Origin: Fimbriimonadales bacterium
GTDB taxonomy: Bacteria > Armatimonadota > Fimbriimonadia > Fimbriimonadales > JABRVX01
DNA: 64,000 nt
Direction of reading: 5' to 3'
NCBI GenBank assembly: GCA_045862955.1
Contig: BTVI01000002.1
Location: 1 to 64,000 of the forward strand
Positions 1,594 through 14,461 of this stretch are shown in pieces (within the stretch, counting starts at the first letter, position 1; every line of letters begins with the position of its first letter). The notes under the pieces were generated by a model. That model was given only the letters and a program-made list of their open reading frames with translations. It was not told the DNA's origin and did no database searches. A program made the translations under genes and the position numbers.

Positions 1594-3207
1594 CTACTTC
1601 AGCAGGGCGGCGAGAACTTGGGCGAGGACGATCTTGGTCAGCGTCGCCGAGGCGTACACCGTAGCGTAGCCGACACTCGGGCGGTCGCTCTTCGACTGCT
1701 CCTGTGCGAACGCCAGCACCGCAGGCTGCGTCTGCACCGCGGCCATCATGCCGAAGAGAGTGGACTGCGGCACCCGTAGCAGCCGCGAGCCGAGCCATAG
1801 AAACAGCGTGGCTGTCACGACGGTCACCGAGGCACCGAGGGCCAACACCGTCCATCCCTCTCCCTGGCGCATCGTCTCGAAGAAGGAGTAACCGGACCGC
1901 GTGCCCACCGCCGCCAGAAAGAGAATCAGACCAATCTGCCGCAGGGTCAGGTTGGCGCTGTAAGGGATCTGCCAAACGATGGGGCCCGTGCGGTGGAGTG
2001 CGCTGAGCACGAGCGCCACTACTAGCGGTCCTCCCGCAAACCCCAGCTTGAACGTGAGGCCGCCACCGATGGGTATGGGCAGCGAACCGACGACCAGACC
2101 CAAGGCAAGCCCCAGGCTGAAGGACAGGATGTCTATCTCGCTTAAGGCGCGATAGGAGTCGCCGAAGAAGCGGCTTACCGCGTCCATGTTGGACCGCTCG
2201 GTCAGCACGCGGACCCGGTCTCCCAGCTCGAGCACCGTATCGCCGGTCGGTAAGAAGTCCACGTCGCCACGTCGCACGCGCGTCACGATGGCATTCATGC
2301 GCTGTGGAAGCTGCAGGTCACCCAGACGCTTGCCAGCCGTCTCCGGGCTGCTGACGAAGATGCGCCGATAGTCTACGAACGACCGGTCTTGCAGGAAGTC
2401 GGTGGCTGTGGGCTCCCCGAGGATCCGGATGGCCTTTTCTGTATCCTCCTCGGTGCCGAGCACACTGAGAACGTCGCCTTCCTGCAGCACGTGCTCGCCG
2501 GTAGCGACCGCCACCTCCTTGCCGCGTTGCAGGCGGCCGAAGACGACCTTACAGTCGTGCCGAGCAGAAAAGTCCCGAATGCTCTGACCGAAGACCGCGG
2601 GGTTACAGACTCGCGCGGCGCGGAGGACGAGCGCGGGCGTAGCCTCTTCCTCGCTGTGGCCGTTGCGCGAGCCACGAGCTGCGCGGAAGAGCGATATCAC
2701 CAAGATCACCCCTAGCACCCCGAAAGGGTACGTGATCGAGTAACCGACAACCGGATCGTTCGCGCTGGGGCTATCCTTCAGCGTCTCGAGCACCGCTGCA
2801 AGCGCTGGCGTATTCGTGAGGCTGCCAGTGTAGGCACCTGCGGCAACGGGACCGCTGAGCCCCAGCACCACTGGCGCGGCGACGATGAGCCCCGCAGCCG
2901 CCACCAAGACACCGATGGTCAGGAGGTTCGCCGCGATTCCCCGCCGGTTCAGCGAGCGTACGAAGCTCGGACCGCTGCTGAGCCCGATGGTGTACACGAA
3001 GACGGTGAGACCCAGAAGGTAGATGATCTCGGGCAACTTCAGTTCGGGATGTAGCGCGCCAAGACCCAAGCCGACGAAGAGAACCGCCGCGATGCCGAGA
3101 CTGCAGCCGGCAATGCGTAGCCGGCCCAAGGGGTACCCGATGCCCGCCACGACGAACAGCAGCAGGATGGGGTTCTCGGCCAGGTATGCGATGACGCGTT
3201 CGATCAT
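1594..3207 (-). CDS. Aspartate:alanine exchanger (AspT/YidE/YbjL) family transporter with two TrkA-C domains
   Basis: Two hydrophobic halves with GSLTNTPALAA and GYSITYPFG / QTQPAVL and GYATVYAS, separated by two RCK-C-like domains (LQEGDVL, LELGDRV). Confidence 0.9.
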   Translation of the reverse strand: MIERVIAYLAENPILLLFVVAGIGYPLGRLRIAGCSLGIAAVLFVGLGLGALHPELKLPEIIYLLGLTVFVYTIGLSSGPSFVRSLNRRGIAANLLTIGVLVAAAGLIVAAPVVLGLSGPVAAGAYTGSLTNTPALAAVLETLKDSPSANDPVVGYSITYPFGVLGVILVISLFRAARGSRNGHSEEEATPALVLRAARVCNPAVFGQSIRDFSARHDCKVVFGRLQRGKEVAVATGEHVLQEGDVLSVLGTEEDTEKAIRILGEPTATDFLQDRSFVDYRRIFVSSPETAGKRLGDLQLPQRMNAIVTRVRRGDVDFLPTGDTVLELGDRVRVLTERSNMDAVSRFFGDSYRALSEIDILSFSLGLALGLVVGSLPIPIGGGLTFKLGFAGGPLVVALVLSALHRTGPIVWQIPYSANLTLRQIGLILFLAAVGTRSGYSFFETMRQGEGWTVLALGASVTVVTATLFLWLGSRLLRVPQSTLFGMMAAVQTQPAVLAFAQEQSKSDRPSVGYATVYASATLTKIVLAQVLAALLK

Positions 3208-3445: not shown

Positions 3446-5335
3446 TCATCCCGAGGTCGGACCAGTTTGCGAGCGCACGATCTCCGCGGCAACCCGAGCG
3501 CGCGCTCGGGCCGGAATCGGCTTGCCCTGTTCATCCACCACCGCCACCCCCCCGTTCACCGGCTGCGTGCGCCATCCGAGGGCGTGCCGGAACTCCTCTC
3601 TCCCCTCCCACAGGTAAGGTACAGGCAGGAAGCCGGCCCAGAAGGCTCGATAAAGTCCCTCTGGGGAGTAGGGATCGGGGATGGACGCCTCCACCTCCTC
3701 GAGCACGGCACGCGCCTCGGCTAGCAAGTGGTCCGTGCGCCGGATGACCTCGCGGTTGCGAGCCATGTCTTCGACCTTGCCACTCGCGCGCAAGCGGCGA
3801 TACTCGGCGAGGGCAGCCCGTGTGATCTGCACGCTCTCGTTGACCACCGTGGGGTCAGCAAGGTGCGATGCCTCGGAGTAGCTCACGACGTGGATGATCG
3901 GTGGGCTCGTCGGGTCGTCGGGCTCGATGTCGTCCATCAGCGCTGTGACCGCAGCTAGCTGAGCTTTGGCCTTGTCTAGATCTGGCGAGAAGTAGTCGAG
4001 ACCGGCGCGCGGCTGCAAGTAAACGGTGTATCGCTCGTCTTCCAGCTCACGCACCAAGGCCAACAGAGCCCGAGCCTTCGCCAGGTCCTGAATGCCCCAC
4101 GTGTACTTCGGCGTGTTCAGCATCGTCTGGAGCACGAGCCTACGCACCCCGAGCCGCTTGGCCGTTCTCGCCGCCAGAACCGAGGACACGATGTACGTCA
4201 CGTCGTCCGCTCCGCGAAATGCGAAATGGTGGGGGATGTTCGGCTCGAAGGGCTTGCCGGTGTCCGCGATCACACGCAGCGTCTCGACATGTTCCCTCAA
4301 GTTTTCCAGCACAGTGTGAGGCCCGCGACCATCAATCAGGCAGAACCACCAGAACGAGAGAGCGTGCCAGGCTATGTGAATCGTCTCCTCGTACATGCGA
4401 GCGAGCACGGGAATGTTGCGGGTCCCGGCATAAGTACGAACCAGCATCGGGCGGGCCGCCTGCCAAACCGCCCGGAACTCGGCCTCCGAGTTGATCGGGA
4501 CTCCGCCACCATTCGGCTTGTCTCCCCAGTCCTTGCCAAAGTCGGACTGCGTTAGCTGCGAAGTTCCGACGGAAAGCACGTCCAGAAGGCCCGCGCCCGC
4601 AAGCTGTCGCGTCCAGTCCAGGAAGGACTGGACCGCTCGCGCCCGATTCGGCTCGTAGGGCCCGACGTGCGCCCGCATGAGTGGCGGAAGTCCTCGCTCT
4701 TTGCCGTGGCCAACGCGCGCGGCGAGCGTGTCCGACGCCGTCCCGAACTCCGCGTACCCAGTGCGGTCCACGGGCCCGACCGCGAGATGTCGCCCTGACC
4801 GAACCAAGTCCCGGCCGAATGCCGAGCGTGCCTCGTCATAGGCCGCGTGCTCACTGATCTCGCGCGGCACCAGGTGGCTCGGGATGCCCAGCCTCTCCAG
4901 CGTCTCTGCGGGAGTCTCGTCGCCAACGAACACGCCGACCAAGTCCCCGTGCTCCCGTTTCACTGCGGCACACGCGGCGGGTAGACCTGCAAAGTACAGC
5001 GCTCGCAACGGGCCGCCTTGCGCTGAAAGCAGGCGTCGCGAGCGCAGCCGGTCAAGGAGCCGCCCGAACAACTCAGCGCCCTCTGCAGGGTCCAAGCGGT
5101 AGCTAAAGCCCAGCCGACTGATGCCTTGTTCCTTGATCCACCGTTCCAGGATTGCCACGTTGTCCAGCCGCGATGGTCGCCCGGTTGCTTCGCAGATTCG
5201 CGCATCCGCTATCACGGTGCGATAACCGCAGTCGTGCAGCAGCTGCTCGACCGTGGCAACGCCCAATGTGTGCGCATCCACGTAAGGCCGTACGAACCCG
5301 AACACCTCGCCCCGGCGAACCTCTGAAGTACCCAT
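3446..5335 (-). CDS. Cobalamin-binding protein: N-terminal B12-binding domain fused to a glutamate-mutase-E-like barrel
   Basis: VDAHTLG fits the base-off/His-on D-x-H-x-x-G motif, followed by GFSYRL and YFAG; the ~420-aa C-terminal part resembles GlmE as I recall it (see findings). Confidence 0.75.
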   Translation of the reverse strand: MGTSEVRRGEVFGFVRPYVDAHTLGVATVEQLLHDCGYRTVIADARICEATGRPSRLDNVAILERWIKEQGISRLGFSYRLDPAEGAELFGRLLDRLRSRRLLSAQGGPLRALYFAGLPAACAAVKREHGDLVGVFVGDETPAETLERLGIPSHLVPREISEHAAYDEARSAFGRDLVRSGRHLAVGPVDRTGYAEFGTASDTLAARVGHGKERGLPPLMRAHVGPYEPNRARAVQSFLDWTRQLAGAGLLDVLSVGTSQLTQSDFGKDWGDKPNGGGVPINSEAEFRAVWQAARPMLVRTYAGTRNIPVLARMYEETIHIAWHALSFWWFCLIDGRGPHTVLENLREHVETLRVIADTGKPFEPNIPHHFAFRGADDVTYIVSSVLAARTAKRLGVRRLVLQTMLNTPKYTWGIQDLAKARALLALVRELEDERYTVYLQPRAGLDYFSPDLDKAKAQLAAVTALMDDIEPDDPTSPPIIHVVSYSEASHLADPTVVNESVQITRAALAEYRRLRASGKVEDMARNREVIRRTDHLLAEARAVLEEVEASIPDPYSPEGLYRAFWAGFLPVPYLWEGREEFRHALGWRTQPVNGGVAVVDEQGKPIPARARARVAAEIVRSQTGPTSG

Positions 5336-5353
5336 GACTGACGTATACCAACT

Positions 5354-6562
5354 CTAGCGCGTGCGTGTCGGCCCAGTCGCCTTGGTAACCGCGGGTTTGC
5401 CGTTGGCAGCCTTTCGCCCTCTCGGCTGGTCGCCGTCCAGGATCAGGCGCCTCAGCTGTTGCAGGCTCATACCCGCGATGCCCATGGTCTCCACCGTCCG
5501 TCCCACCTTCCAGTAGTCGCATTCGTGGATCAGGCCGGCGAGGTGAATGATGGCCTTTATGGTCGGGCAGGGCACCCCGAGCATGTCGCCTAACGAGGCG
5601 ATGGGCACTAGGCTCATGGGAACGTCCTCGGTCAGGTAGCGGTGTGCGAGGGTGTGCGGAGCTTTGATGCCGTAATAGCCCGAGTTCGCTCGAATCGCGT
5701 CGAAAAGCGTTCGCCCGGCGGCATCGTAGGCGATGTACAGCCACTCCCGGGCGGTCATGCAGTTGAAGCCCATCGCCGCACCCACCGCGACCCGCTCGGC
5801 GTCTATCGCCTCCAGGATCAGCGCAGACGAGCGCGAGATACCCTCGATGTAGTACTCGAAGTCACCGCGAGTGCTCTCAATGCGAGCGCAGTTCAGCACC
5901 GTGACGGCCGGGTGGAAGATAGCCCCGATGTTGTCGAGGCTCGTCTTCATGACGTTGTCGCCCGGCACGAACTCTTTGTAGGCAGGAGAGAGTGCGCGGA
6001 TGACGTCGGGGGTCTTGTAGGCGGGGATGGCAGCCACCGGGACGCTATTCTTTATACCGAAGATCTGAACCTGAGCCGGGTTGAGCGCTCGCGAGGCGTA
6101 TAGCAACGTCTGCGCCTCTGCGATGATGACCCCGGGGTTGCCGCCAGCTTGTAGAAAGCGGTGCCGGAACTCCAGCGCGCCGCCGGTCCGGCCGGGGTTG
6201 AGCACTACGATGGAGCCTTCCTTCAAATAGGGCGCGCACTGCTCCGCCATGAAGTCGTGCCCTGTCGCAGGCACCACCACCATGGCGATGTCCGCACCCG
6301 GCAGCGCCTTCTTCGCGTCGTTCGTGACCACTTCGGGTTCCGCGTGGCCGCTCGGCAGGTCGTCGCGCTCGTGGCTCGCGATGAGCTGGATGTAGCCGCT
6401 CTGAACGATGGGCTGAATGCGCGCCTCGCTGCGGTTGTACAGCCGCACACGGAAACCCATGAGGCACAGGTGGGCGGCCATCGCGAGGCCCCCGTTGCCT
6501 GCGCCCATCACGCAGAATACGGGACCATTCTGTTCCGGTTTGGTTTTGCTCTTCTTAGGCAT
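5354..6562 (-). CDS. NAD/NADP-dependent octopine/nopaline (opine) dehydrogenase family protein
   Basis: Rossmann VMGAGNGG, LNPGRTGG, IFHPAVTVLN, RYLTEDVP motifs; AAGGAGG RBS upstream. Confidence 0.88.
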   Translation of the reverse strand: MPKKSKTKPEQNGPVFCVMGAGNGGLAMAAHLCLMGFRVRLYNRSEARIQPIVQSGYIQLIASHERDDLPSGHAEPEVVTNDAKKALPGADIAMVVVPATGHDFMAEQCAPYLKEGSIVVLNPGRTGGALEFRHRFLQAGGNPGVIIAEAQTLLYASRALNPAQVQIFGIKNSVPVAAIPAYKTPDVIRALSPAYKEFVPGDNVMKTSLDNIGAIFHPAVTVLNCARIESTRGDFEYYIEGISRSSALILEAIDAERVAVGAAMGFNCMTAREWLYIAYDAAGRTLFDAIRANSGYYGIKAPHTLAHRYLTEDVPMSLVPIASLGDMLGVPCPTIKAIIHLAGLIHECDYWKVGRTVETMGIAGMSLQQLRRLILDGDQPRGRKAANGKPAVTKATGPTRTR

Positions 6563-6687: not shown

Positions 6688-7854
6688 CTAGGAGGCTGGA
6701 TCCCCGAAGTCGGGTATCTCCAACAGCTCGCCACCCCGCAGAGAGGATTCGTGGGCAAGGAGGCCCGGGAGCACGTATCGAGCAGCCTGCCACACGTTGT
6801 TCGGAGGCTGCTCGCCTGCATGGACGGCCTTCACGAAGTCGTCGACTAGGAACTGGTGCGAGCCGAAGTGCCCATTCGGCAGGCCCAAGAACTCCTTCGG
6901 GAGGCGCAGAAGGTCGTGGATCGGGGAGACGTCGCGGAAAGCCGCTTGGGCCGAGTCCGGGGGGACCTCGGTGCCATCGGGCATGCGCTTCGCGCATCGC
7001 AGCAGGTCGTCCAGGCGTGTGACTTCGTGCCTGCCCGTCCACACCGCGCCGGCCACCGTATCCTGGAAGCATCCTTCGGTGCCGTACATGGACATCCTCT
7101 CGACACACGGGTGTCCGATGCGGCGGAACTCGTTGATGCGACACACGCTACCATCGGACATGCGGAATAGAGCCGACTGATTCGAGAACCGGTTGTCCCA
7201 GACGTTGGTTGCGGGGCCGTAGATCTGCTGCTCGCTGTCCTCGAAGCCCTGGCAGGAAACGTGCGTCATCCGCTGGCCGAGCACAGACACGATCGGAGCG
7301 ACGGAGTGGGTGGGGTATAGCATAGGAGGACTTCCGGCGAAGCGACGCCACTGCTCGCCCCCTCGCGTTTGCATCACATCGTACAGGCCGTGGTCCCAGT
7401 CGTGATAGTATTCCCCTTCGGAGTAGACGACCCGGCCGAAGGCTCCCTTCGCAACCTGCTGCCTGCAGTAGATAGTGCCTGGGTAGTAGTAGCTGGTTTC
7501 TCCCAGCATATAGATGCGCCCGGTCCCTTCTACTGCACTAACCAGGCTCTCGACCTCCTGCACGCTGATGCACGGAGGCACTGCGGAGTAGACATGCTTG
7601 CCAGCGAGAAGAGCTTGCACAGCTTGCGGCCCGTGCAACCAGTTCTGGGTGAAAATGGCTACCGCATCCACGTCTGTTTCGAGCACAGCCTGGAGGGAGG
7701 GGAAAGTGCGCGTGACGTGGTATTTCGCCGCAGTCTCGGACAGCTTTCCCTCGTCCAGGTCGCAGAGCACCACTTCGTCAATCAGAGGGTGCGCCCGAAA
7801 CAGCGGAATGAAACTGTGTGCGAACGAACCACATCCAACGATTGCGATTGTCAT
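6688..7854 (-). CDS. Gfo/Idh/MocA family oxidoreductase
   Basis: IAIVGCGSFA Rossmann start, HGPQAVQALLAGKHVYSAVP, YMLGETSYY, YPTHS. Confidence 0.9.
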   Translation of the reverse strand: MTIAIVGCGSFAHSFIPLFRAHPLIDEVVLCDLDEGKLSETAAKYHVTRTFPSLQAVLETDVDAVAIFTQNWLHGPQAVQALLAGKHVYSAVPPCISVQEVESLVSAVEGTGRIYMLGETSYYYPGTIYCRQQVAKGAFGRVVYSEGEYYHDWDHGLYDVMQTRGGEQWRRFAGSPPMLYPTHSVAPIVSVLGQRMTHVSCQGFEDSEQQIYGPATNVWDNRFSNQSALFRMSDGSVCRINEFRRIGHPCVERMSMYGTEGCFQDTVAGAVWTGRHEVTRLDDLLRCAKRMPDGTEVPPDSAQAAFRDVSPIHDLLRLPKEFLGLPNGHFGSHQFLVDDFVKAVHAGEQPPNNVWQAARYVLPGLLAHESSLRGGELLEIPDFGDPAS

Positions 7855-7902
7855 GTTAAGCTATCTCCTTCCTGCGTGTATCATGCCATTTGCTTCTGCT
7901 TT

Positions 7903-8717
7903 TCACCACTCCAGCGGGTGGGTCACCGGCGACGCCATGCCGAGCGCCTCGTCAGCCGGGCCCTCGGCGAGTCACCGAGACACCCTCCCATCGATCCTAG
8001 CCCTCACCACTCCAGCGGATGGGTCACCGGCGACGCCATGCCGAACCCGCCGTCACGCTGTGCCTGTCGCCGCGCTGTACCTGTCGCCAATGCCAAACCC
8101 CGTCGTCATGCTGAGCCTGTCGAAGCATGACACCGCCGGCCGCACGTTTTCGAAATCCCTAGGTGGCTCTGGCACTGACCGATGCCATGCTTCGACAAGC
8201 TCAGCATGACGGTCCTTGGAGGTTCCCGAAGGGATGCGCGGCCGCCTGCTTCGACCGGCTCAGCATGACGAAGTTCCTTGTTCTGCCTCGTCAGCCGGGC
8301 CCTCGGCGAGTCGCCGACACACCCTCCCCTCGATCCTAGCCCTCACCACTCCAGCGGATGGGTCACCGGCGACGTCATGCCGAACCCGCCGTCACGCTGT
8401 GCCTGCCGTCACGCTGTACCTGTCGCCAACACCAAACCCCGCCCTCATGGTGAGCCTGTCGCCACGCTGTACCTGTCGCCAATGCCAAACCCCGTCGTCA
8501 TGCTGAGCCTGTCGAAGCATGACACCGCCGGCCGCACGTTTTCGAGATCCCTAAGTGGCTCTGGCACTGACCGATGCCATGCTTCGACAGGCTCAGCATG
8601 ACGGTCCTTGGGTGCCCGCTAAGGGATGCGGCCGCCTGCTTCGACAAGCTCAGCATGACGGTCCTTGGAGGTTCCCGAAGGGATGCGGCCGCATGCTTCG
8701 ACCGGCTCAGCATGACG
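7903..8717. repeat. REP cluster 1 (mosaic of CGTC-tagged 26-bp palindromic repeats)
   Basis: Consensus CGTCATGCTGAGC(C/T)TGTCGAAGCATG. Forward copies at 8104 and 8496; reverse copies at 8186, 8245, 8578, 8635 and 8692. A ~350-400 bp block is duplicated internally. Confidence 0.93.
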
Positions 8718-8806
8718 GGGCTGGGGGGTCCGCTAACGGACAGGCCCGGATGCGTCCACTGGCCCACCATGATGGTCTGCTGGCAGAGTGACGCTGCCAC
8801 GGACGC

Positions 8807-11236: not shown

Positions 11237-14200
11237 CTACTTCCAGAGCAGAGCGTTCACCATCTCGACCAGCAGACACCCGACTGGCTCCTCGTCGCTG
11301 TCAATCAGGTAGTCGCGGAACCAGCGCACGTCGTACCTACCTTCGGTGTCCTTGGCGAGGAACCTCGGGAAGTCCACGGAGCATTGGGCCACCACCGTCT
11401 CGAAGGCGATGAGTGCGTCCAGGTCGTCCTGAATGTCCAGCGCCCGGTAAAGGGCGTCTCGGCACTCCTCGCTGATCTTCGGCTTCTGGGTTGCCCCGAC
11501 CGCGACCGTCGAGAAGTACTCGATCAGGCACTTGATCTGCTCTCGGTCAGAAACCCTGACCTTGAACTCTACCGTCGCATACTGCGGCGGTCCCGGCCTG
11601 CCCTGATCGTCGAGTACCACGTAGACCACCGTCAGCTCGTACAGGGTCTCCGGCGGCGAGAACAGCAGCGCGCGGTTGCCGAGGCACGGCCCGTCCGGCG
11701 GAAGCTGGAACGCCACGTTACAGATCGGGTCGTTCAGCCGCTGATTGTTCGCGAACTTCAGACCGGTGTCGAAGTTCGTGTTCAGCCCAGAGCCGGGACC
11801 CGTGACGAACGCGGTGCACTTCCAGGACGGGGTGACCTTCTTGATGCGCACGGCCTGCACGATCAACCGGTCGTTGATGTCCACGCCGTTGGCTATCAAG
11901 ACGTCGCGGATCGTTATGCCGTCGATGTTCAGCACCTGCGGCCGGAACACCGTGACTGGAAGCCCGCTGAACGGATCGTCCACCGAGGGCCCGCACAAGA
12001 TGTTCAAGAGGCCGGCTTCGGCCGTCTGAACGGTGTGCGTGGCCGTGCCGGTACTGCCGTTGTAGTTGTCGGTGCCGCTGTACACGGCGGTCAGCGCTTT
12101 GACGCCGGTCGAGTCGAAGGTGTGTACGTACTCGGCCACGCCTGCGACCACCGCAACCGGTGCGCCCACGTCCGTACCGTCCACCTTGAACTGCACGGTG
12201 CCGCCGTCCGGCGTCGGAGTGACCGTCGCCTTGAGCGTCACGGGCTGGCCGACAACCGACGGGTTGGGCGTAGAGGTGACAGTCGTGGTCGTGATGGCCT
12301 TGTTGACCTGCAGCGTGGTGTTTCCAGTGCTGCCCTCATAACCGGCGGTGCCACTGTACACGGCTTCGACGAAGCGCGAGCCAGGCGTAGCATAGGTTTG
12401 CTGCAGCGTGGCCTGGCCGGCAACAACGCTGACCGGTCCGCCGACGTTGCTGCCGTCCACCTTGAACTGTACGGTACCGCCATCCGGAGTGGGTGTTATG
12501 GTCGCGGTGAACGTGACCTGCTGACCCACCTGAGCCGGATTCGGTGCGGCTACGACCGTGGTGGTGGTCGGCGTCTTCTGTACCGTGTGGTCCGCCGAGC
12601 CGGCACTGCTCTCGAAGTTAGATGTACCGCTGTAGACGGCTTCCACCAACTGGACGCCCACTGCGGGGAACGCATAGGTGGTCTGCGCCTGGCCGGCAAC
12701 CACGCTCACCGGTGCCCCGATGTTGACACCGTTGACCTTGAACTGCACCGTTCCGCCATCGGGCGATGGGCTCACCGTTGCGGTGATCTGCACGTTCTGG
12801 CCGACTTTGGACGGGTTCGGCGAGGTCGAGACCGTGGTCCCGGTCGGAGTCTTGTTGACCAAGAGGTTCGTAGTGCCGGTACTGGCCGCGTAGTTCGTCG
12901 TCCCGCTGTACTCGGCGGTGATCGTGCGGTTACCAGCGTTGTTGAACTGCTGCGTCGTCTGGGCCTGTCCGGCCACCACTGGGACCGGGCCGCCCAGGTT
13001 GACGCCGTTCTCCTTGAACTGCACGGTGCCGCCATCAGGCGTCGGCGTGATGGTGGCCGTCAGCGTGGAGTTGCTGCCGCGGTCAACCGGGTTCGGGCTT
13101 GCGTTGACCGCCGTACTGGTCGGCGTCTTGTTGACGACGAGCGTGGTCTGACCAGTGCTGGCGTTGTAGTTTGCGGTCCCACTGTACTCGGCGGTGATTG
13201 TTCGGTTGCCCGCCGTGTTGAACTGCTGTGTCGTCTGGGCCTGTCCGGCCACGACTGGGACCGGGGCGCCCAGGTTGACGCCGTTCTCTTTGAACTGCAC
13301 CGTACCGCCATCAGGCGTCGGCGTGATGGTGGCCGTCAGCGTGGAGTTGCTGCCGCGGTCCACCGGGTTCGGGCTTGCGTTGACCGCCGTACTGGTGTTC
13401 GCCTTGTTGACGAGGAGTGTCGTGGAGCCTGTGCTCGGGTTGAAGTTCGAAGTTCCGCTGAAGACGGCTTCGATGTTCCGGTTGCCCGCGGTGGTGTACG
13501 TCTTATTCGTAGACGCCTGGCCGCCGACGACCGGAACGGGCGCGCCGAGGTTCACCCCGTCTTCCTTGAACTGCACGGTACCGCCATCGGGCGTCGGCGA
13601 CACGGTCGCCGTGAAGGAGACGTTCTGACCGACCGTCGCGGGGTTGGGCACGGCGACCACGGAAGTCGTGGTGTCCATCGGCCCACCGCCTCCCGTGACC
13701 TGGATGTAGTTGTCGGTGATGTCCACCGATGCACCTACATAGTCCAGGATTCGGGTGGAGAGACCGGTCCCGGTATCACGATTGTCGAATGCCCAGTTGA
13801 GCGTCTGTCCCTCGGATCCCGGAGCGATCGTGAAGGTGAACAGCGTCTTCGCCGGGAAGTTGTACGAAGCGGTGCGCGTCCCCTGCACTCCGATCAGGGC
13901 GTACAAGCCCTTGTTCGCCACGAATGGGTAGTTGGGGTCGCTCGGGTCAATGGCGTTGTCCCGCATCTCGCCATAGTCGGGCTGCCAAAATATCTTGATC
14001 GGGTACCAAGCGCCGGGCACGAAAGCCGCGTTCACCTGAGTAGCCCACGTATTCGCATCTGCCTCGCTCATTACGCCGTTCCCATCTAGAATCAGCGTAA
14101 TCTGCATGGTGCCCCACTTCTCGGTCTGCCCGGTCTGGTCGTCGGCCCTGAAGTAGTACTTGATCGCGATCTGATCCCCGGGGTCGCAAAGTAGGGCTCC

Positions 14201-14347
14201 GGCATTGGATGTGCCTTTGGTTACGTTCTCGAACCACAAGCGCGCGACATACCCCGCATGCCCAGACGACGCGAGAAGCGTCGCGCCGACCGTGGCTAGC
14301 GCCACCAGGGTCGTGCGGAGACCGCGCGTGCTAAGCGCAAAACTCAC
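11237..14347 (-). CDS. Secreted surface protein: unknown N-terminal domain, six Ig-like (Big_3-type) repeats, Cys-rich C-terminal domain
   Basis: GGGAGG RBS before GTG at 14347; signal peptide; six ~92-aa repeats (T-x-T...PNP...GQ-x-V-x-x-TAT...PDGGTVQFK...A-x-YSGT). Confidence 0.85.
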   Translation of the reverse strand: MSFALSTRGLRTTLVALATVGATLLASSGHAGYVARLWFENVTKGTSNAGALLCDPGDQIAIKYYFRADDQTGQTEKWGTMQITLILDGNGVMSEADANTWATQVNAAFVPGAWYPIKIFWQPDYGEMRDNAIDPSDPNYPFVANKGLYALIGVQGTRTASYNFPAKTLFTFTIAPGSEGQTLNWAFDNRDTGTGLSTRILDYVGASVDITDNYIQVTGGGGPMDTTTSVVAVPNPATVGQNVSFTATVSPTPDGGTVQFKEDGVNLGAPVPVVGGQASTNKTYTTAGNRNIEAVFSGTSNFNPSTGSTTLLVNKANTSTAVNASPNPVDRGSNSTLTATITPTPDGGTVQFKENGVNLGAPVPVVAGQAQTTQQFNTAGNRTITAEYSGTANYNASTGQTTLVVNKTPTSTAVNASPNPVDRGSNSTLTATITPTPDGGTVQFKENGVNLGGPVPVVAGQAQTTQQFNNAGNRTITAEYSGTTNYAASTGTTNLLVNKTPTGTTVSTSPNPSKVGQNVQITATVSPSPDGGTVQFKVNGVNIGAPVSVVAGQAQTTYAFPAVGVQLVEAVYSGTSNFESSAGSADHTVQKTPTTTTVVAAPNPAQVGQQVTFTATITPTPDGGTVQFKVDGSNVGGPVSVVAGQATLQQTYATPGSRFVEAVYSGTAGYEGSTGNTTLQVNKAITTTTVTSTPNPSVVGQPVTLKATVTPTPDGGTVQFKVDGTDVGAPVAVVAGVAEYVHTFDSTGVKALTAVYSGTDNYNGSTGTATHTVQTAEAGLLNILCGPSVDDPFSGLPVTVFRPQVLNIDGITIRDVLIANGVDINDRLIVQAVRIKKVTPSWKCTAFVTGPGSGLNTNFDTGLKFANNQRLNDPICNVAFQLPPDGPCLGNRALLFSPPETLYELTVVYVVLDDQGRPGPPQYATVEFKVRVSDREQIKCLIEYFSTVAVGATQKPKISEECRDALYRALDIQDDLDALIAFETVVAQCSVDFPRFLAKDTEGRYDVRWFRDYLIDSDEEPVGCLLVEMVNALLWK

Positions 14348-14461
14348 GATGGTCCTCCCTTCTATCGCAACGGCGCGGCCCCATGGTGCCGCATCTAGCA
14401 CTCGATAGAAACACTAAGATTAACTCCCAAGCGGAAGTAACAGGGCTCGGGCGACGCCCCC

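Follow-up and report, generated by a model that had tools for sequence, protein, structure and literature searches.

A predicted adenosylcobalamin-dependent mutase encoded beside an opine dehydrogenase in a Fimbriimonadales bacterium

About a dozen reactions dependent on adenosylcobalamin (AdoCbl) are known. In the E component of glutamate mutase (GlmE), Arg66, Arg149 and Glu171 hold the glycyl part of the substrate and Arg100 and Tyr177 the acrylate part, Gly68 and Asn123 contact adenosine (PMC10947579, as far as the available part of the paper goes), and Glu330 binds the adenosyl ribose (PMC3958899, likewise in part). For opine dehydrogenases, the accessible portion of PMC10787698 reports that Arg and Gly at positions 111 and 198 of the Arthrobacter enzyme (ArODH) shift preference to acidic amino acids, and that six expressed Arg/Gly enzymes turned pyruvate and either L-Asp (the best substrate) or L-Glu into opines. 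Their kcat/KM on Asp was 0.04-1.46, against 630 for ArODH on Phe (PMC10787698, same portion), and this low efficiency suggests that Arg/Gly dehydrogenases have a different native substrate. Here we describe a locus that joins the two enzyme types. It lies within a 64,000-nt stretch (the window; contig BTVI01000002.1 of assembly GCA_045862955.1, Fimbriimonadales, phylum Armatimonadota), where the minus strand encodes a 402-aa opine dehydrogenase of family PF02317 (5354..6562) followed by a 629-aa, single-chain, predicted AdoCbl-dependent mutase (3446..5335), a B12-binding domain fused to a GlmE-type barrel.

We consider it highly probable that the 629-aa protein is an AdoCbl radical isomerase that works together with the dehydrogenase. 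As to the order of steps, we tentatively place the dehydrogenase first, acting on pyruvate and L-glutamate, with the mutase then converting the resulting opine into a branched one.

Fold and active site of the 629-aa protein

Direct searches with the 629-aa protein against Pfam (E 0.1), NCBIfam and PDB sequences gave no match, and profile searches against PDB sequences returned weak B12-domain matches (best E 0.11) or chance matches. Pairwise BLAST against GlmE was likewise not significant (best E 0.11), so that homology to GlmE rests on profiles and structure. The protein nevertheless belongs to a large family, with at least 2910 homologues at 90% clustering (8000 candidates scored) and 465 among 50%-identity representatives. 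The nearest named homologues come from Armatimonadota, and named carriers in GTDB include Clostridia, Prevotella, Smithella, Rectinema, Treponema, Planctomycetota and Anaerolineales. In the ESM Atlas, the protein falls among "cobalamin-binding" clusters that grade into PF02310 and PF06368 clusters.

A full-length structure model built from a 145-row alignment reached a mean predicted local distance difference test (pLDDT) score of 94.7, and Foldseek ranked glutamate mutase E first (1cb7_B, E 4.6e-11). Comparison by VIA-align, together with conservation, delimits a predicted GlmE-like (beta/alpha)8 barrel with C-terminal extension at residues 199-615 (3491..4741, minus strand), which superimposed on GlmE 6h9e_B with Z 28.1 (root-mean-square deviation 3.2, 374 aligned residues, 16% identity). 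Lysine 5,6-aminomutase (Z 26.3), ornithine 4,5-aminomutase (24.6) and methylmalonyl-CoA mutase (19.5) followed, and the first unrelated, non-B12 barrel scored 17.3. Modelled separately, the first 160 residues (pLDDT 92.8) form a predicted cobalamin-binding Rossmann-type domain at about residues 8-152 (4880..5314, minus strand). Its best match was the B12-binding domain of 4r3u (Z 13.3, root-mean-square deviation 2.3, 124 aligned), and nine of the ten best chains are cobalamin- or corrinoid-binding proteins by title, with response-regulator folds next after the B12 domains at Z about 11.

These predicted models bear out two proposals of an earlier note on this DNA, namely that the C-terminal ~420 residues are GlmE-like and that the whole resembles a GlmS-GlmE fusion. 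Five motif pairs with GlmE had been listed there. In a local profile alignment against genuine GlmE sequences (prob 78.9, E 1.6e-5) four of the five align as listed, and the fifth, PMLVRTYAGT, does so in the global run. A domain scan of 31 homologues (4 close, 27 distant) found two above the PF06368 cut-off, three carrying a fusion to the GlmL/MutL reactivase family and one with an added ATP-grasp domain; the fusions to GlmL/MutL or a RimK-like ATP-grasp domain are found in the distant homologues P0215, P0236, P0241 and P0174.

A cobamide-binding protein that is not an adenosyl-radical enzyme, but a methyltransferase, sensor or carrier, would also fit the resemblance of the N-terminal domain to methionine synthase and corrinoid proteins (Z 11-12) and the database names of family members, which read just "cobalamin-binding protein". 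We give this explanation very little credence, given that the barrel scores clearly higher against AdoCbl mutases than against other barrels, the equivalent of Glu330 is conserved and relatives are fused to GlmL/MutL.

The conservation pattern is consistent with an AdoCbl radical isomerase. The B12 motifs that the earlier note had read in the sequence were located as DAHTLG (residues 20-25), SYRL (78-81) and FAG (115-117). The first is the DxHxxG His-on motif (D20 to G25; 5261..5278, minus strand), with H22 and G25 each present in 135 of 145 rows and 7 rows gapped. Residues of the barrel were mapped by profile alignment to 19 genuine GlmE sequences, the first of them letter-identical to PDB chain 6h9e_B, and near-invariance was scored across 84 locus proteins. 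Gly68, Arg149, Glu214 (or Arg213) and Glu330 of GlmE correspond to Gly225, Arg300, Glu364 and Glu488 of the mutase, the last (3872..3874, minus strand) being aligned in all profile runs that cover the region. In contrast, Arg66 is replaced by His223, Gln64 by Arg221, Arg100 by Gln263 and His291 by Arg443. R221, H223, G225, Q263, R300, E364, R374, R443, H482 and E488 occur in 84/84 locus proteins, H324 and R337 of the barrel are also near-invariant, and the B12 domain carries an invariant Arg80. The loop NGGGVP lies opposite NGFPGV of GlmE (the Asn123 region), in an uncertain register.

The substrate side thus differs as the earlier note had supposed: Arg66 and Arg100 are exchanged, one of the three residues of the arginine claw (Arg66/Arg100/Arg149) is kept, as Arg300, and residues 318-334 (strand 4 and flanks) contain no Asp or Glu, the register of Glu171 varying between runs. 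Retention of Arg149 (Arg300) and Glu330 (Glu488) had been overlooked. Judged from these alignments, the parts that generate the radical seem to be intact, and the pocket for the substrate seems rebuilt yet arginine-rich. The residues kept and lost make it likely that the protein acts like an AdoCbl mutase, yet not as a glutamate mutase.

A rebuilt pocket could also serve a different radical reaction on the opine, such as a 1,2-shift of nitrogen or carboxyl on the pyruvate-derived arm that is independent of pyridoxal phosphate (PLP) and gives an N-(2-carboxyethyl), beta-alanine-type product, or an elimination. The largely rebuilt pocket, the invariant Arg80 of the B12 domain and the narrow lead of GlmE over aminomutase barrels (Z 28.1 against 26.3 and 24.6) speak for such chemistry. 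We nevertheless regard it as unlikely, since GlmE is still the best match over barrel and C-terminal extension, and we know of no precedent for a 1,2-shift on the His-on GlmE fold. The PLP-anchoring lysine of aminomutases, which we take to lie in the B12 domain shortly after DxHxxG, has no conserved counterpart there (Lys in at most 13/145 rows in any of columns 20-41). This argues against a PLP aminomutase, and any nitrogen shift would need another route.

The partner dehydrogenase and the pairing of the two genes

The 402-aa protein matches PF02317 with E 7.9e-48 (162.7 bits against a cut-off of 30) and the Arthrobacter enzyme 1bg6 with E 1.5e-73. It has an N-terminal GxGxxG Rossmann domain, and its His/Asp dyad, H217 and D313, aligns to H202 and D297 of 1bg6. 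R125 and G213 occupy ArODH positions 111 and 198, the signature for acidic amino acids. The same Arg/Gly signature was found in 69/69 scorable partner dehydrogenases of a 91-locus set and in 27 of 29 further partners, the other two having Arg/Ala. Some partner dehydrogenases carry an N-terminal phosphotransferase system (PTS) EIIA domain (PF00359, confirmed for L002:6337-8001); further candidates for such an extension are L008 and several ~550-aa dehydrogenase open reading frames (ORFs), and regulation is suggested.

The 91 loci comprise 11 from GTDB and 80 from metagenomes (the best 80 of 560), and include some near-duplicates and kin that are not independent. A dehydrogenase gene lies within the fetched DNA at 73/91 mutase loci, always co-oriented (73/73), upstream of the mutase gene in 63 and downstream in 10. 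Where at least 2.5 kb of flank was available on both sides, it adjoins the mutase gene in 37/40 loci. The pairing recurs in 15/16 additional close-family loci and, in a sister subfamily (~30% identical), in 14/16 loci, 13 of them co-oriented. Across 301 genomes of the phylum, 63 hold both genes, 219 neither, 3 mutase fragments only, 2 (incomplete genomes) a close dehydrogenase only and 14 a distant dehydrogenase only (31-38% identity). Both genes are therefore present in 63/68 genomes holding the mutase or a close dehydrogenase. Fragments included, the mutase family occurs in 66/301 genomes; its spread is patchy, with the mutase gene in 4/61 close relatives. The survey of co-occurrence with PF02317 that the earlier note had suggested thus revealed tight coupling, both in well-flanked loci and across genomes.

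Proteins of the sister subfamily (L169-L184) are ~550 aa long, have CxHxxG instead of DxHxxG in 16/22 distant alignment rows and are paired with Arg/Gly dehydrogenases at 54-66% identity. Mutases of glycan loci are closer, with partner dehydrogenases merely 32-40% identical, and the partner trees appear decoupled. In genome G452 (C620:3036-5564) a second MutL-family gene directly follows an opine dehydrogenase, and apparent second mutase copies at loci L009, L064 and L065 have no matching ORF.

The specificity of the dehydrogenase bears on the order of the two steps. The mutase could instead precede the dehydrogenase and convert a free acidic amino acid, either L-glutamate into a 3-methylaspartate isomer or 2-aminoadipate into 3-methylglutamate. 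The dehydrogenase would then use pyruvate and NAD(P)H to trap the branched product. The equilibrium of glutamate mutase favours glutamate, and trapping would pull it, as methylaspartate ammonia-lyase does in the classic pathway; starting from glutamate, the end product would be the same branched opine as in the dehydrogenase-first order. Characterised Arg/Gly dehydrogenases favour Asp-length acids and are slow on Asp itself (PMC10787698, in the portion available), which fits an Asp-length native substrate such as 3-methylaspartate, and hence mutase action first. The genome lacks a detectable ammonia-lyase. Arg149 of the claw is retained, and a claw could be re-formed with Arg221, Arg443 and His324. 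Set against this, two of the three claw arginines and the amine-binding Glu171 are missing (residues as assigned in the available part of PMC10947579), and a canonical GlmE operon is also present in 2/5 carrier genomes tested, where a plain glutamate mutase would be redundant. We regard the mutase-first order as possible though doubtful.

Genomic setting and proposed pathway

Neighbouring genes were surveyed by clustering and Pfam over the 91 loci. ATP-grasp ligases occur in 35/91 loci and AsnB-like enzymes in 16/91, never together; in well-flanked loci, 26/39 have an amide-forming gene (19 ATP-grasp, 7 AsnB-like, never both). DegT-type aminotransferase genes are present in 15 loci, all with ATP-grasp and often with GT2 and flippase genes, and genes for an MscS-like channel and alanine racemase recur near the pair. 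In L032 (7961-10354), L025, L039 and L070, the operon order is mutase, MscS-like channel, alanine racemase and, where the DNA extends far enough, AsnB-like enzyme. In Rfam scans, 11/39 loci (0/5, 7/13, 1/11 and 3/10) had a cyclic di-AMP (c-di-AMP) or nhaA-I riboswitch upstream of their operon. Most nhaA-I RNAs sense Li+. According to the accessible part of PMC9337991, nhaA-I variants sense Na+, and c-di-AMP riboswitches are tied to osmotic stress and an osmolyte gene. Such partners, namely ligases that consume ATP, genes for amino sugars and glycosyltransferases, and osmotic riboswitches, point to synthesis.

Within the window, both ORFs lie on the minus strand and 18 nt separate the dehydrogenase stop from the mutase ATG, as the earlier note had given. 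Their G+C content at the third codon position is 0.82 (402-aa ORF) and 0.77 (629-aa ORF), against 0.46 and 0.49 at position 2, which matches expectation for real genes. Around the pair, the window showed neither a riboswitch nor a convincing promoter or minus-strand terminator. Four RNA runs gave short contigs only, and three of these runs are probably DNA; a 210-nt exact piece of the dehydrogenase gene was present in one RNA library. Prediction of a mutase-dehydrogenase complex gave a score of 0.00, which is evidence for neither side.

Two further genes on the same strand flank the pair. An AspT/YidE-family transporter gene (1594..3207) lies 238 nt downstream of the mutase gene, and a Gfo/Idh/MocA oxidoreductase gene (6688..7854) lies 125 nt upstream of the pair. 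Both could be read as parts of a catabolic module, in which an opine or branched amino acid would be taken up and oxidised to pyruvate and an amino acid, and its skeleton isomerised into glutamate metabolism; both enzyme types are reversible. However, the transporter was not found next to the pair in 32 other loci queried with it, forms no neighbour cluster among the 91 loci and lies on a different contig from the pair in a same-genus genome, and the recurring ligases, amino-sugar and glycosyltransferase genes and osmotic riboswitches again point to synthesis. A catabolic role therefore appears improbable. The Gfo/Idh/MocA gene is kept at the equivalent position in the same-genus genome only and is probably outside the core module. 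Both genes were rejected as core parts.

Further along the window, a palindromic array resembling repetitive extragenic palindromes (REP) occupies 7900-8780, between the hexosaminidase and Gfo/Idh/MocA genes, with six 33-nt copies at a spacing of 57-59 nt and larger duplications of 177-193 nt. At 11237-14401, the minus strand encodes a 1054-aa protein with tandem ~90-residue immunoglobulin-like repeats and a long antisense open frame.

The genome as a whole is 97.6% complete, and neither methylaspartate ammonia-lyase (PF07476) nor canonical GlmE (PF06368) was found in it; the earlier note's remark that no ammonia-lyase is adjacent thus extends to the whole assembly. The genome encodes a PduO-type adenosyltransferase, the CobA type not being found, and a fusion of MeaB with a methylmalonyl-CoA mutase B12 domain. 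The sole c-di-AMP riboswitch of the genome (C62:1346-1478) lies directly 5' of an AsnB-like gene (C62:1561-3033), whose product lacks Cys1 at its predicted start and is the best in-genome match for 17/17 operon-linked AsnB proteins, above the canonical AsnB on C77. In a same-order genome (L107), riboswitch, AsnB, opine dehydrogenase and mutase stand in one row, and in the same-genus genome the riboswitch-AsnB part is separate from the pair, as here. From these arrangements, an ancestral operon was likely split in this genome. A single GlmL/MutL-like gene on C6 was considered as a dedicated reactivase and rejected, PF13941 being present in 254/301 phylum genomes; this gene (C6:79534-81498) has a C-terminal extension, and its family's 254/301 genomes compare with 66/301 for the mutase family. 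In the same-genus genome, C77 (L109:4890-5242) holds a 3' mutase remnant (residues 511-627) beside rmuC and an AspT-like transporter, and an intact Gfo-dehydrogenase-mutase block lies on a different contig; the remnant is either a relocation scar or an assembly duplicate.

For the dehydrogenase-first order, we propose the following pathway. The dehydrogenase would couple pyruvate with an acidic amino acid, L-glutamate being the likeliest, to form N-(1-carboxyethyl)-L-glutamate. The mutase would then turn this opine into a branched isomer, for example N-(1-carboxyethyl)-3-methylaspartate. In the mutase, cobalt would be ligated by His22 and the adenosyl ribose held by Glu488, and Arg300 would take the role of GlmE Arg149 in holding the alpha-carboxylate. 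With the amine partner Glu171 lost, the pocket may have room for the N-substituent, and the extra barrel arginines Arg221 and Arg443 could bind the third carboxylate of the opine. Fragmentation of the GlmE type would yield an N-alkyl glycyl radical and acrylate, which then recombine. An AsnB-like or ATP-grasp enzyme would subsequently convert a carboxylate to an amide, or transfer the product. Where riboswitches lead the operon, the product would be a compatible solute; in polysaccharide loci, it would serve to N-acylate an amino sugar. [quoted passage not shown] We infer the product class and both biological uses, salt-stress protection and cell-surface decoration, from gene context.

Several points weigh against this reading. 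The profile alignments behind the residue mapping are only moderately strong (prob 58-81; global 19 and 60), and an N-substituted glutamate does not account for the loss of Arg100. Those Arg/Gly dehydrogenases that have been characterised work better on Asp than on Glu, with low efficiency even on Asp. The loci used for pairing and neighbour counts are not independent, those scanned for riboswitches were hand-picked, and 13/39 well-flanked loci have neither amide-forming gene. The pair in the window itself has no riboswitch and no adjoining ligase, and the AsnB-like protein had no match in three genomes of the phylum that carry the pair. We hold with some reserve, as a plausible but less than even prospect, the broader picture of a widespread class of B12 radical enzymes that isomerises an opine. 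Its product would feed an amidated compatible solute controlled by c-di-AMP and Li+/Na+ riboswitches, and this building block would also be put to use on surface polysaccharides.

To our knowledge, an opine, a secondary-amine tricarboxylate, is not a substrate of any B12 enzyme. If the proposed pathway is true, it would represent a new B12 reaction, provide a native role for Arg/Gly dehydrogenases and probably bring to light both an osmolyte and a glycan substituent that are new. It would also assign chemistry to a family of at least 2910 members, present in 66/301 genomes of one phylum, that has no reaction in the literature searched. That search, outside which most subscription journals lay, returned no biochemical study of the family, and a paper on opine zincophores (PMC7438024) does not mention B12, a mutase or ATP-grasp.

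Comparison with known systems

The closest described enzyme is glutamate mutase, GlmS plus GlmE (EC 5.4.99.1; PDB 1cb7, 6h9e, 1i9c). It has in common with the window mutase the DxHxxG B12 domain, the barrel, the C-terminal extension and, as aligned by profile, the positions of Gly68, Arg149, Glu214 and Glu330, and relatives of the mutase are fused to GlmL/MutL. The window mutase differs in being one chain, with 16% identity and no PF06368 match, in having His for Arg66, Gln for Arg100, no Glu171 and Arg at the His291 position, and in its partner gene, which encodes an opine dehydrogenase rather than methylaspartate ammonia-lyase. Lysine 5,6- and ornithine 4,5-aminomutase (PDB 1xrs, 8t0v, 3kow) have a related barrel (Z 24-26) and a His-on B12 domain; unlike them, the window mutase has no conserved lysine after DxHxxG to anchor PLP. 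Acyl-CoA mutases match the fold less well than GlmE (methylmalonyl-CoA mutase Z 19.5 against 28.1).

On the dehydrogenase side, the Arthrobacter enzyme 1bg6 and the mODHs (PMC10787698) have the PF02317 fold and His/Asp dyad in common with the window enzyme. The latter carries Arg/Gly at ArODH positions 111/198 like the mODHs, whose motifs were matched by eye, whereas ArODH has Ala/Asn there and prefers apolar amino acids. Neither a native substrate nor a genomic neighbourhood is stated for the mODHs in the available portion of that paper (PMC10787698).

For the polysaccharide loci, alanopine on Qui4N in Providencia alcalifaciens O35 is a described opine-acylated amino sugar. As an opine amide on a 4-amino-6-deoxy sugar it sets a precedent for loci combining DegT, ATP-grasp and dehydrogenase genes, although the accessible part of that work mentions neither a B12 step nor a branched acidic opine (PMC10609480).

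The family itself has a predecessor in print. Zhang et al. 2009 predicted a B12-dependent family in 11 bacteria, always adjoining PF02317, with D-Ala-D-Ala-ligase-like (Ddl-like) and asparagine synthase genes nearby; in the part of the paper available, a TIM-barrel-like structure is placed at the N-terminus, and a mutase fold, a reaction, a riboswitch or a glycan link is not given (PMC2667541). The earlier note's description of the pathway as undescribed has to be withdrawn to that extent, as both family and PF02317 pairing were predicted there and the pairing is thus already in print. The window family, with its distant N-terminal B12 domain, PF02317 neighbour and nearby Ddl-like and AsnB genes, agrees with that account and, compared by description only, is very probably the same.

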